From Deltaproteobacteria bacterium (GTDB taxonomy: Bacteria; Myxococcota_A; Polyangia; Polyangiales; Houyiibacteriaceae), in contig JAFDAJ010000002.1 in assembly GCA_019313915.1 (NCBI GenBank), positions 31,098-95,097 of the forward strand: DNA of 64,000 nt, read 5' to 3'. Positions 54,573-57,963 of the stretch are shown in pieces. The notes below the pieces were generated by a model, which searched no databases, had not been told where the DNA came from, and saw only the letters and a list, made by a program, of their open reading frames with translations. The position numbers were made by a program, and so were the translations under genes. How positions within the stretch are numbered: the first letter of the stretch is position 1; the number at the start of each line of letters is the position of its first letter.

Positions 54573-56591
54573 GTGTTGCGTTTGGGTTTGCTTGCCTTGT
54601 GGATGGTCGCGATTGGGCTCGTGGCGCCGGGGAACGGTGTCGCCCAGGACGGCGACCGTCTCCTCGAGTTTCACTTCACGCCGACCAAGCGGGCCCAGAT
54701 CGCGATCTGGATCGAAGACGCGGACGGCACCTTCATGGACACGGTGGCGCTGACGTCATCGGTCGCGCTTCGTGGCGTCGGCAACCGGCCGGGCGCGCTC
54801 CAGATGAACAGCGGCTTCCGGTGGCCTTTCGGACGCCGCGAAGGGGTCCTGCCGGTCTGGGCACATCGGCGAGCAAACGCGCCAGGCGCGGAGCTCTTTC
54901 CCATGGTGATTTTTCAAGACCGTGTTTCGGAGGGATTCGCATCGCGCACCTCGGTCGACGCGTCTCCAGACTCCTACTTCTGCCTGTCGTTCGATCAGAC
55001 CACGACGACGCGTGAAGCGCTGGACGCCGTCACTTGTGCGAGTGTCTTCAACAGCGACAAGGGTCGGTTCGCAACGGATGACGATGTCCGTGACGAATAC
55101 GCGGAGCCTTTCGTCGGTCCGTCCGGCTCTGAGATCATGCGGCCAGTCGGCGGCAGGTCGGTCTATCCGCCCCGCCGCGACGTCGAGGGTCTCGGCCTCT
55201 ATGACCACCCGGATGTGGGGCGATTTGTTCAAGAGGCGCGGAACGTCATGCCGAACATCGACGCGGTCACCATGGCGACGCCCGCAGGGGACGTCCCACG
55301 AACGATTCAATTCCGTGCCCCGTCAGAGTGGGAAGACGGCGAATACTCAGCCTGGATCGAAGTCAACACCGAGGGCGACTACAACGACACGTACAACGAC
55401 GAGACCTACCCGACGCCGATTTCCGATAGGTGGGACTTCTGGGCCCAGACCTACGGTTACCCCTACCGCGGGCAGCCGTCGATCCTATATCGAGTGCCTT
55501 TCACGTTGGGCGCGGTGATCGCCGAGTACGAAGCGTCCGCTCCTGTCGGCTACGGAAGCATGCACGGGGAATCGGGTGACTTGTTCCCCATGGACTCGTC
55601 GATCATCGACGATCCCGACGGCGCACCGGGCAGTGGGGCGGACCGGTTGCGTCGCGATGAGGCGGGCGCCCGTTTCGGAGTCTTCATCTTGGCCACCAAC
55701 ATTTGCGAGGAGCCAGAGCCTCCCGCGATCTGCGGACAAGACTGCACGGAGGACGCCGATTGTGGCGTCGGCTTCGCCTGCGGCGAAGACCAGAGTTGCC
55801 TTGGGTTGTGCGACGTGGAGGGGCAGCCCGACGCGATCGCCGACTTCAGCATGGAAAACCACCCCAATGCGAAGTGGTCCCACGTCGTCGCGCGGCTTCG
55901 CTTCACGGTTCCGCAAACCACGCGTCCGCTCCGTCAATACAAAGTCTTGGCGAGCAAGATCCTGGTCAACAGCATGGTCACCGAAGACGCTCATGCGCTC
56001 GAGATCACCAGCGCGGGCAAGCCCATTCAGGGAGACGGGCTGCACATCCCGGTCGATTCGGAATGTAGCGATGGGGTCGCGTCCGAGTTGCTCTGCGGCC
56101 CCTACGTCGCGAACGAAGATGGCGAGTGCGAAAACGGCATCGATGTGGATGGAGACGGGGATTGCCTCGACCCAGGTGACATCATCGTGGTCAACACGGC
56201 CTTCGATGCTCACGAGACCGAGTACGAGGTCGAGATTACGGCGACCGACCTATGCCAACGACAGAGCGACCCGGTCGCTGCGAGCTTGAAGACAACCTCG
56301 ATTGACTTCACCACGGTTCCACCTTGCTTCGTTGCAACCGCCGCCTATGGCTCACCACTAGCCGATGAGATTTGGGCGCTCCGGCGCTTTCGTGATCGTT
56401 ACCTGATGACCAACCCCGCGGGCCGTGCGTTCGTCGATGCGTATTATGCGCTCGGCCCGTACGCCGCCGAACTCATTGCTGAGCACTCATGGATGCGAAC
56501 AACCACCCGCGTACTTCTGACCCCTTTCGTCGCCCTAGCGCGCTATCTGGCGCCGGAAAAACCAGACGAAAACGTATCCTCGGCCCGCTGA
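54573..56591 (+). CDS. Large secreted protein: DUF2271-like N-terminus, Cys-rich middle, CFxxTAAYGS-type C-terminal module
   Basis: 672 aa, GTG start. Signal [42 protein letters not shown] resembles the DUF2271 core. Cys-rich [37 protein letters not shown]. C-terminus [41 protein letters not shown]. Confidence 0.6.
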   Translation: [672 protein letters not shown]

Positions 56592-56791
56592 AGCTCGCGG
56601 TCCTCCTTGCTCTGAGTGCCGCCGCAGGCTGCGCGACCGTCAAGCCATACGAGCGGGAATACCTTTCTCGTCCGAGCATGGACCTCGAACGCGAGGCGAC
56701 AGAAGCGAAGTTCTATACCCACGTTCTAGATTCCCGCGAGGGCGCCACCGGAGGTCTTGGGACCGCCGGCGGGGGATGCGGGTGCAACTAA
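56489..56791 (+). CDS. DUF4266-like small lipoprotein (ends GGGCGCN)
   Basis: 100 aa from ATG 56489 (a 103-nt overlap with the upstream gene). Signal/lipobox KTRRKRILGPLKLAVLLALSAAAGC. The C-terminal GGLGTAGGGCGCN is the hallmark I recall for DUF4266. Start codon uncertain. Confidence 0.65.
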   Translation: MDANNHPRTSDPFRRPSALSGAGKTRRKRILGPLKLAVLLALSAAAGCATVKPYEREYLSRPSMDLEREATEAKFYTHVLDSREGATGGLGTAGGGCGCN

Positions 56792-57963
56792 CCTCCCGAC
56801 GACAGAGGTCGCGCTGGGTGGTGCTCAGGTTGCTTCTGGCTGCCAGCATCGTTCTACTTGGCGTTCATCCACAGCGCGCAAACGCCGACGCCGTGACGGG
56901 CACTTGGACGGGCGACGCGCAGGTGCGCGGCAACTACTACTGGGACCGAAGCACGCGAGTCCTCGCCCCCGAGTTCATCGCCCAACTCGAGGCGCCGCAA
57001 GGAACCCGAATGCGGGTGGATTACTTGGTCGACTCGATCACGAGCGCGAGCATCGCGGCAGGTGCGCTCGAAGACGTGCGGTTCACCGAAGTGCGTCACG
57101 ACGTCGACTTGAAAGCGGGTCACGAATTCGTGGAGCGTGAGAATCCGGTCGACTTGTTTGGGGGGTTTCGCTTGAGCCGGGAACCGGACTACTTTTCGTT
57201 CGCCACCCTGTTCCAGCCCACCATCTGGCTCGCAGACCGCGCGACGATGTTTCGCGGCCGAATCAGCTACCGCCACGACGAAATAGGCCAGACTTTCCGG
57301 GGTGGATCGCAACAACGGCCTGACAACATGGGAGGCACGAGCGCCGACGCTTTCAGAGAGACCCTGGACGCCGTTTCTTTGGCGGCGGGGTGGGAACAAG
57401 TCCTATCGCGCACATTGGTCTTGGAGGTCGGGTACGACTTCACGTACCAGTGGGGCTTTCTCGCCAATCCGTATCGCTCGGTGCTGGGCGGACAAATTCC
57501 GGAGAACCACCCCGGCCAGCGCTACCGTCATTTGTTGTTCTCGAGACTCGCTTGGTACATCCCGCGATCCCGCACCTCGCTGCAAGTTTTGTATCGCTCG
57601 TACGTCGACAACTGGAAAGTCAGCGCGGTCAATCCCGAGTTCCGCATCTACCAGGAGATGTCACCGTTCTTTCAAACGCGCCTGCGCTACCGCTACTACA
57701 CCCAAACCTCCTCGTTCTTCTACAAGAGCAACCCGAACGACTACAGCCTCGACGACCAGTACGTCACCGCCGACCCCAAGTTGAGTGAGTTCCACGTCAA
57801 CGAGCTCGGCATCCAGTTCCTCGTGCTGGGCGCCTTCCTCGAAGGCAAAGCCCACCGCTCGATCGCCGGCGCCCAGTTCGACATCAGCTTCAACTACCGC
57901 TGGAACACCAACTCCTTCGGCAACCAAGTAGTGGCCCAAACCGGCCTACGAATTCCGTTTTAG
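56776..57963 (+). CDS. DUF3570-like predicted outer-membrane beta-barrel protein
   Basis: 395 aa. Signal WVVLRLLLAASIVLLGVHPQRANA. Shows RGNYYWDRSTRV, alternating-strand composition and a terminal ...TGLRIPF. Classic partner of DUF4266. Overlaps its 3' end by 16 nt. Confidence 0.65.
   Translation: MRVQLTSRRQRSRWVVLRLLLAASIVLLGVHPQRANADAVTGTWTGDAQVRGNYYWDRSTRVLAPEFIAQLEAPQGTRMRVDYLVDSITSASIAAGALEDVRFTEVRHDVDLKAGHEFVERENPVDLFGGFRLSREPDYFSFATLFQPTIWLADRATMFRGRISYRHDEIGQTFRGGSQQRPDNMGGTSADAFRETLDAVSLAAGWEQVLSRTLVLEVGYDFTYQWGFLANPYRSVLGGQIPENHPGQRYRHLLFSRLAWYIPRSRTSLQVLYRSYVDNWKVSAVNPEFRIYQEMSPFFQTRLRYRYYTQTSSFFYKSNPNDYSLDDQYVTADPKLSEFHVNELGIQFLVLGAFLEGKAHRSIAGAQFDISFNYRWNTNSFGNQVVAQTGLRIPF

Follow-up and report, generated by a model that had tools for sequence, protein, structure and literature searches.

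What is a DUF4266–DUF3570 gene pair doing next to a gene for a secreted multi-domain protein, and apart from the enzymes that usually accompany such a pair? The question is raised by three overlapping genes, here called A, B, and C, in a 64,000-nucleotide (nt) stretch of the genome of a Deltaproteobacteria bacterium (GCA_019313915.1, contig JAFDAJ010000002.1). This stretch is referred to as the window, and all positions are 1-based within it. A preliminary description of the locus had called the function of all the families concerned unknown. This is no longer correct, because DUF2271 (one site), to which a part of A is related, and DUF3570 (two sites), to which C belongs, have been experimentally flavinylated by ApbE at [S/T]GA[S/T] motifs (Meheust et al. 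2021, eLife, PMC8238504). Flavinylation by ApbE is coming to be recognized as a common foundation of redox chemistry outside the cytoplasm, and the presence of two independently validated ApbE-substrate families in one operon implies that they work jointly. The best explanation of the triad, in which we place about even confidence, is that it represents a Myxococcota variant of the extracytosolic flavinylation-based redox system built on DUF3570 and DUF4266. In this variant, a DUF2271-derived partner with a CFI-box would have been recruited, and ApbE and a thiol reductant would be supplied in trans.

The three open reading frames (ORFs) overlap on the same strand, A with B by 103 nt and B with C by 16 nt. 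The longer overlap cannot be avoided by another choice of start for B, as start-codon analysis showed the ATG at 56489 to be the sole in-frame ATG, GTG, or TTG upstream of the B lipobox. The start of A may be the TTG at 54576, as homologues begin with MRFG or MRLG. The overlapping frames suggest that translation of A, B, and C is coupled. A scan of the locus for promoters and terminators returned no signal exceeding the shuffled expectation. ORF calling and Pfam searches reproduced what the preliminary description had given for the three frames, their coordinates and overlaps, and the convergent rluD-like gene that follows them.

Protein C matches the hidden Markov model (HMM) of DUF3570 (PF12094) with 94.6 bits against a cutoff of 25. 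It has a signal peptide (residues 1–37), about 16 strands, and a C-terminus ending in PF. The outer-membrane beta-barrel fold expected of a DUF3570 protein is predicted for C by AlphaFold2 (AF2), whose model confidently forms a barrel of ~16 strands (predicted local distance difference test, pLDDT, 88.5; predicted template modeling score, pTM, 0.81). Foldseek searches with this model returned the Occ/OprD, OmpG, and CymA barrels, with a generic likeness only (TM-scores of 0.35–0.47). Protein B matches DUF4266 (PF14086) with 75.1 bits against a cutoff of 27. It is a small lipoprotein with the lipobox AAGC (Cys48) and a mature peptide of ~53 aa, and its Gly-rich tail ends in GGGCGCN, with the CXC encoded at 56777–56785. 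The same tail was present in 76 of 76 B homologues, whose median mature length is 53 aa. Thus, an HMM match, a small lipoprotein, and a C-terminal CXC, the three marks of DUF4266, are all found in B. Both family assignments and the GGGCGCN ending had been proposed earlier, and they stand.

Protein A belongs to a family of >1,245 proteins from sources named Polyangiales or Sandaracinus (metagenome-assembled genomes). It had been described as giant, which a protein of 672 aa is not. Its layout was derived from an AF2 model (pLDDT 73, pTM 0.75) and runs from a signal peptide through a split DUF2271-like beta-sandwich, a Cys-rich module, and a fn3-like domain to a CFI-box-CTERM domain. PDB Foldseek searches with the model gave generic fn3/Ig beta-sandwich matches only. 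When profiles of A and C were run against PDB sequences, no match was obtained and, therefore, no solved DUF2271 or DUF3570 structure was available as an anchor.

Is the N-terminal part of A a DUF2271 domain, as first proposed? Native A scored 17.4 bits against PF10029, below the gathering score of 27.3, and the match was confined to residues 39–61. However, 24 of 26 aligned A homologues matched PF10029 at E ≤ 0.01 (best E, 7e-8), and the homologues P0114 (27.4 bits) and P0120 (28.8 bits) exceeded the cutoff via a second stretch covering the IDAVTMAT region. Furthermore, constructs of A of 118–149 aa, from which low-confidence inserts had been spliced out under guidance of the AlphaFold model, scored 27.4–27.5 bits in one alignment across HMM positions 17–121 of 136. 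The 27.5-bit construct covered positions 17–39 and 59–121. The subthreshold native score, the at-threshold spliced scores, and the homologue matches together identify the N-terminal beta-sandwich as a DUF2271 domain into which conserved segments have been inserted. In other words, they support homology of A to DUF2271 without ordinary membership in PF10029. A departs from that family in its native score, in having more than a single [S/T]GA[S/T]-type site, and in lacking a compact domain of ~135 aa.

The remaining parts of A were recognized more readily. The Cys-rich insert described earlier proved real, with seven Cys (C378, C387, C391, C397, C403, C409, and C413) invariant in a 26-sequence alignment, along with C561 outside the module. 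One source labels the homologue P0104 a trypsin-inhibitor-like Cys-rich protein, and the module was absent from the shorter Kofleriaceae-type relative that was examined. Matches of A homologues to the fn3 model PF00041 are weak or precomputed. In the subfamily of A, the fn3-like domain has an additional insert rich in Cys and Asp (~495–533). The C-terminal module, which had been recognized as recurrent in secreted proteins, is a CFI-box-CTERM domain whose leading Cys, C585, is invariant in the alignment. AF2 predicts it as a three-helix module (595–609, 615–637, and 639–659) at a pLDDT of 60–70. CFI-box domains occur in organisms lacking outer membranes, and the papers found by literature search do not mention the domain. 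It probably anchors or sorts A.

Table 1. Positions in the window of the triad, its domains and motifs, and two further genes discussed in the text
Feature	Position	Strand	Length or residues	Basis and remarks
Gene A	54573..56591	+	672 aa	ORF; secreted multi-domain protein
DUF2271-derived N-terminal domain of A	54651..55562	+	~27–330	PF10029; conserved inserts at ~62–222 and ~269–299
Motif 1 of A, DAVTCAS	55023..55043	+	151–157	D-x-x-[ST]-x-A-[ST]; Cys at Gly position; inside the larger insert
Motif 2 of A, DAVTMAT	55260..55280	+	230–236	Position equivalent to the DUF2271 flavinylation site; Met at Gly position
Cys-rich (TIL/EGF-like) module of A	55698..55817	+	376–415	Invariant Cys
fn3-like beta-sandwich of A	55830..56297	+	~420–575	AF2 strands; PDB Foldseek fn3 matches
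CFI-box-CTERM domain of A	56325..56531	+	585–653 of 672	NF041770, 93.9 bits vs cutoff 40
Gene B	56489..56791	+	100 aa	ORF; DUF4266 lipoprotein
Gene C	56776..57963	+	395 aa	ORF; DUF3570 outer-membrane beta-barrel
Motif of C, DSITSAS	57031..57051	+	86–92	Single flavinylation-type motif in C; Ser at Gly position
RluA/RluD-type pseudouridine synthase gene	58040–59050	-		PF00849 and S4 domains; convergent to the triad
Membrane-anchored TlpA/redoxin-like thioredoxin (WCGAC)	~24418–24970	-		AhpC-TSA 80.7 bits, Redoxin 69.5 bits

The check for flavinylation motifs suggested in the preliminary description revealed two in A and one in C that it had not noted itself; in each of the three, another residue stands in place of the canonical Gly. 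As defined in the ApbE review (PMC12052999), the minimal motif reads D-x-x-[S/T]-G-A-[S/T], and ~50% flavinylation is still obtained after a G-to-A change. The 26-sequence alignment shows no variation at D230, A235, and T236 of motif 2 in A. Across 160 A family members, the Asp, the Ala, and the acceptor Thr/Ser are kept, and the Gly position is occupied by M, T, R, Q, or C. A second, shorter clade of A proteins from Kofleriaceae/Haliangium, consisting of DUF2271, fn3, and CFI-box domains, shows the motif as D.[VIL][ST].[AP][ST] in 112 of 120 sequences, mostly with R, Q, K, or H at the Gly position. Motif 1 is likewise conserved. L150, D151, A152, C155, A156, and S157 are invariant, the form DA[VI][TS]CAS is found in 151 of the 160 family members, and the form D..[ST]C[AP][ST] is found in 117 of the 120 sequences of the second clade (chance expectation, 0.1%). 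The chance expectation for the motif counts in that clade is 0.1–0.6%. In C, the form [VL]D-x-[IV]-[ST]-S-A-S is kept down to ~30% identity, with D86, A91, and S92 invariant or nearly so. TGAT/SGAT forms and a second tandem motif are restricted to distant DUF3570 members (the second motif, for example, in P0317, P0350, and P0371). In the AF2 model, strand 3 terminates in DSITSAS, and a short loop follows on the side of the barrel that also bears the long conserved loops (172–193; 228–247 with ANPYR and PExHP; 311–338). By the usual topology rule for outer-membrane proteins, this side would be external or lumen-facing.

Do these motifs occupy the true flavinylation columns of their families? 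Motif variants were scored against the Pfam models, DUF2271 for spliced A and DUF3570 for C. For motif 2 of A, the wild type scored 27.5 bits, M234G 31.4, T236A 24.6, and a scrambled motif 22.2. For C, the wild type scored 94.6 bits, S90G 100.4, S92A 92.5, and a scrambled motif 90.5. That is, restoring the Gly gained 3.9 bits in A and 5.8 bits in C, removing the acceptor cost 2.9 and 2.1 bits, and scrambling cost 5.3 and 4.1 bits. DAVTMAT and DSITSAS are thus positionally homologous to the canonical flavinylation columns, whereas DAVTCAS agrees with the motif pattern only. A further observation concerns the residue that replaces Gly. A distant DUF3570 protein with two SSAS motifs sits in a canonical Trx-DUF4266-DUF3570-ApbE cluster (locus L088; ApbE, 252.9 bits). 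Therefore, the Ser-for-Gly variant is compatible with an ApbE partnership.

The next question is whether the three genes belong together. GTDB species genomes were scanned with a 15-sequence DUF3570 alignment, which yielded 145 relatives. The best 80 loci, all from Myxococcota, were typed by ORF calling and custom HMMs, and the 63 of them that extended 2.5 kb or more upstream were considered assessable. A was located directly upstream of B–C in 40 of the 63 assessable loci, and B was found in 71 of the 80 loci. In most loci, the genes run in one direction, with A/B and B/C overlapping or directly adjoining, and the ~185–250 nt between the end of A and the start of C are occupied by B. The triad was found again at 50–56% identity of A, both in the same and in wholly different flanks. 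A distant triad occurs in L091/L092, where C is 34% identical and the A-like protein scores 187 bits for its N-domain and 49 bits for its CFI-box. Genome-sequenced relatives include the cultured Sandaracinus amylolyticus, which has B–C, and a Haliangium sp. assembly (L093), which has all three genes. In the latter, the A-like gene is 2.6 kb from a divergent B–C pair, and the three genes lie within 3 kb. Between them (11760–12473 of L093) are a gene for a sigma-70 region-4 (ECF-like) factor and a 223-aa ORF, an arrangement that hints at dedicated regulation in this Haliangium lineage.

How could the three proteins work together? From the memberships, motifs, and predicted fold described above, we infer flavinylation, topology, an electron path, and a substrate as follows. 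C would be an outer-membrane barrel with one site of the covalent flavin mononucleotide (FMN) type (DSITSAS) where strand 3 ends on the loop side. B would be a periplasmic lipoprotein whose tail carries a redox-capable Cys-Gly-Cys, and A would be a Sec-exported, disulfide-rich protein with two flavinylation-type sites, S157 and T236. A periplasmic thiol pool, maintained by a TlpA/DsbD-type system encoded elsewhere, would reduce the CXC dithiol of B. This dithiol would in turn reduce the barrel flavin, as in flavoprotein disulfide reductases, and the barrel flavin would pass electrons to the flavins of A and on to an external or periplasmic acceptor. The reverse direction is possible. ApbE would have to act on A and C in trans, because none is encoded nearby. 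An outer-membrane-associated redox or metal-handling complex had been suggested before. The redox half of that suggestion agrees with what homology implies, but metal handling found no direct support. A mechanism based on haem was rejected because the translation of A, read for CXXCH, contained none.

In a more daring version of this scheme, the triad would conduct electrons across the outer membrane without cytochromes. B would thread its CXC tail into the barrel and reduce the covalently bound FMN there, and electrons would continue to a surface-anchored, doubly flavinylated A and then to an extracellular acceptor. The non-canonical motif D-x-x-[ST]-[C/M/R/Q/S]-A-[ST] would be served by a trans-acting, possibly specialized ApbE. 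We regard this version as decidedly improbable. If it were true, Myxococcota would have in the triad a functional counterpart of MtrCAB that works with flavins.

Several observations weigh against a flavinylation-based triad in general. A search with phmmer at E ≤ 10, using the genuine cluster ApbE of L088 as the query, together with a signature regular expression, found no ApbE in 1.4 Mb of six-frame-translated sequence covering the 64-kb window and 86 related loci with 10-kb flanks. An ApbE within five genes, which defines the clusters of Meheust et al. (2021), was absent from the window triad and the 86 loci, and the canonical arrangement was recovered only in L088. The motifs are also atypical. 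The canonical D..[ST]GA[ST] occurs in only 1 of 160 A family sequences and 4 of 120 sequences of the Kofleriaceae/Haliangium clade, and C, in which the second tandem motif of canonical DUF3570 was not found, departs from the two-motif pattern of its family. To our knowledge, ApbE has never been tried on targets with bulky or charged side chains (M, C, R, Q, K) in place of the Gly. Motif 1 lies in a region of low AF2 confidence, and the motifs of the A-like protein in L091/L092 are degenerate. Moreover, A could be either periplasmic or surface-exposed.

The association of the genes is not obligatory either. B–C occurs without A in 23 of the 63 assessable loci (37%), often straight after uvrB or with unrelated genes. 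Conversely, a Sandaracinus sp. locus (L004, JACKED010000002.1, 10001–12333) has A and DUF4266 with no detectable DUF3570, followed by an 83-aa ORF and an opposite-strand RCC1-repeat gene; the absence of DUF3570 there could reflect gene loss or an assembly problem. Because of the loci lacking A and of L004 lacking C, the three genes are not strictly interdependent. The earlier claim of co-conservation is thus correct for the majority of assessable loci but not as a rule without exception.

Could the triad work without flavin? It may descend from flavoproteins and have lost its dependence on ApbE, with the motif skeletons retained for structure, for another Ser/Thr modification, or for non-covalent binding of a ligand or metal via C155. 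Envelope thiol-disulfide or metal chemistry would then proceed through the CXC of B and the cysteines of A without covalent FMN. The lack of ApbE throughout the flanks searched speaks for this idea, as do the all but uniform substitution of the Gly in A, the loss of the second site in C, and the invariant Cys inside motif 1 together with seven or eight further invariant Cys in A. However, the Asp, the Ala, and the acceptor Ser/Thr are kept even between clades with different residues at the Gly position, as a still-used flavinylation site predicts, and the Ser-for-Gly variant adjoins ApbE in L088. ApbE is also commonly encoded in trans, a single enzyme serving several substrates (PMC8238504). 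L006, a canonical double-TGAT DUF3570 locus, is likewise without ApbE in the flanks covered; therefore, a pair without ApbE is not unusual in itself. On balance, loss of the flavin is a serious contender that we nevertheless consider rather unlikely. The two outcomes differ in what they would teach. If the sites are flavinylated, the ApbE target motif is broader than current surveys assume, and substrates are missed by those that rely on [S/T]GA[S/T]. Otherwise, this lineage shows the repurposing of a flavoprotein scaffold.

Two other explanations concern the way A came to stand beside B–C. B and C may translocate or anchor a variable upstream cargo, with redox chemistry secondary; the cargo would be A with its CFI-box here, a JDVT-CTERM protein in some Proteobacteria, and a Gly-rich lipoprotein in S. 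amylolyticus. Consistent with this, the upstream partner changes as B–C stays constant, proteins with Cys-containing C-terminal sorting signals occur beside DUF4266/DUF3570/TlpA (Haft 2023), and A bears extracellular hallmarks, namely disulfides, a fn3 domain, and an Asp-rich insert. Yet B–C often stands by itself directly after uvrB with no candidate cargo, the companions of B–C in canonical clusters are ApbE and thioredoxin and not a cargo protein, and DUF3570 is itself a proven flavoprotein. The occurrence of CFI-box domains in organisms that lack an outer membrane also speaks against this role. Haft, too, takes these neighbors as partners of the mature protein and not as sorting machinery. 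An export or display role is accordingly quite unlikely in our estimation. Finally, A might adjoin B–C only because both belong to a conserved block of housekeeping genes close to the replication origin (uvrB ... rluD-dnaJ-recF-dnaN-dnaA). Gene order is maintained across Polyangiales in all of this region, and more than a third of the assessable loci have no A. Nevertheless, the triad persists where the flanks are wholly different (L002, L004, L091/L092, and L093), its genes overlap or abut on one strand in most loci, and chance would hardly bring together A and C, which both descend from families of ApbE substrates. A merely incidental association is, for these reasons, very improbable indeed. 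A flavinylation-based redox system served in trans remains the explanation we prefer.

How does the triad compare with known systems? Clusters of DsbD, ApbE, DUF3570, a thioredoxin-like protein, and DUF4266 have already been described, and the C-terminal CXC of DUF4266 was proposed to redox-cycle (PMC8238504). The preliminary description was therefore right that the pair usually travels with ApbE and a thioredoxin-like protein. The triad shares with these clusters the adjacent DUF4266 lipoprotein with CXC and DUF3570 barrel, in the same order, and a flavinylation-type motif at the same HMM columns. In contrast to them, it has no ApbE, thioredoxin-like, or DsbD gene in the cluster or within 10 kb (~85 loci), C has one motif (TSAS) instead of two [S/T]GA[S/T], and a DUF2271-derived CFI-box protein is added upstream. 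With the PepSY-like/ApbE/DUF2271/DUF4198 clusters (Meheust 2021), for which iron reduction was proposed, the triad shares DUF2271 homology and a motif at the position of the flavinylation site. Canonical DUF2271, however, is a free-standing protein of ~135 aa with one [S/T]GA[S/T] site, encoded beside ApbE and a PepSY-like membrane protein. A instead has inserts totaling ~190 residues (~160 and ~30), a second motif in the larger insert, and a replaced Gly; it is fused to Cys-rich, fn3, and CFI-box modules and paired with DUF3570/DUF4266 rather than PepSY.

A third comparison is with JDVT-CTERM proteins, which in some Pseudomonadota, Thioalkalivibrio and Janthinobacterium among them, are encoded beside DUF4266/DUF3570/TlpA, neighbors read as partners of the mature protein and not as its sorting machinery (Haft 2023, bioRxiv 10.1101/2023.06.07.544157). 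Common to both is a secreted protein with a Cys-containing C-terminal domain adjoining the DUF4266/DUF3570 pair, but the triad has a CFI-box instead of JDVT-CTERM, belongs to another phylum, and has no adjacent TlpA. The component families and their general role have thus been published. What appears to be new is the arrangement, in which a DUF2271-derived A is joined to DUF4266–DUF3570, the Gly is almost always replaced, and no ApbE is encoded in cis. The supplementary tables of Meheust 2021 had no Sandaracinus, Polyangiales, or Haliangium entries among those examined, and the literature search returned no paper naming both Myxococcota and ApbE.

Porin–cytochrome conduits of the MtrCAB type offer a functional analogy. 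In the layout proposed for the triad, as in these conduits, a redox carrier in the periplasm is combined with a barrel in the outer membrane and a redox protein on its outer side. There is no homology between them, however; the barrel has 16 and not 26 strands, and flavin and thiol cofactors are proposed in place of haems, in keeping with the lack of CXXCH in A.

Candidates for the thiol-reducing partner were also sought in the window. The absence of ApbE and thioredoxin partners claimed earlier is true of the immediate surroundings of the triad, but a membrane-anchored TlpA-like thioredoxin is encoded in the window 30 kb away. It resembles the cluster-type thioredoxin of L088 (phmmer E = 1.3e-16) and is unlinked to the triad; its gene lies directly downstream of, and overlaps, a histidine-kinase gene (24966–26480). 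It is a possible trans-acting reductant for the triad. A DsbD_2-like ORF at 42344–43024 (+) was rejected as a partner, as it scored 29.6 bits only and is 12 kb off beside a CobW/HypB-like gene in a hydrogenase region. It overlaps that gene, which encodes a CobW/HypB/UreG-type GTPase (41452–42384, +), downstream of a [NiFe]-hydrogenase/Hyp maturation region (~31–40 kb), and is more likely a Ni/Co transporter than DsbD. The gene at 51691–52563 (-), between serC and uvrB, encodes two tandem GST_N_3/glutaredoxin-like domains with CPFC in each. It was rejected as the missing thioredoxin because it is on the opposite strand, has no obvious signal peptide by eye, and is confined to the close syntenic clade; its position is kept in 10 close syntenic loci, and it does not accompany the triad elsewhere.

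The gene order in the window is serC, the tandem GST_N/glutaredoxin-like gene, uvrB, A-B-C, rluD, dnaJ, a cyclophilin gene, recF, dnaN, and dnaA, which sets the locus in housekeeping synteny near the replication origin. With recF, dnaN, and the 3' part of dnaA at 60851–63926, at the right end of the window, the triad is within ~6 kb of the likely origin region. Recurrent neighbors are all housekeeping genes (UvrB, SerC, RluD, DnaJ, RecF, DnaN, and DnaA). In S. amylolyticus (L005, CP070225, 8027–9607), a 526-aa lipoprotein is encoded between uvrB and DUF4266–DUF3570, and a PNGase-like gene follows DUF3570. This protein was rejected as an A homologue, being an unrelated Gly-rich lipoprotein. In five Sandaracinaceae loci without A (L053, L056, L058, L062, and L068), a conserved protein of ~350 aa with no Pfam match is encoded, on one strand or the other, ~1 kb ahead of DUF4266. 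Judged by eye, it may be related to catalases.

Elsewhere in the window, a secreted protein encoded at 20035–21123 (+) has a C-terminal match to Fam20C (Golgi casein kinase; PF06702, 41.7 bits). Fam20-like kinases are unusual in bacteria. The gene directly after it (21133–22131, +) encodes a Porphyromonas-type peptidyl-arginine/agmatine deiminase (338.6 bits).

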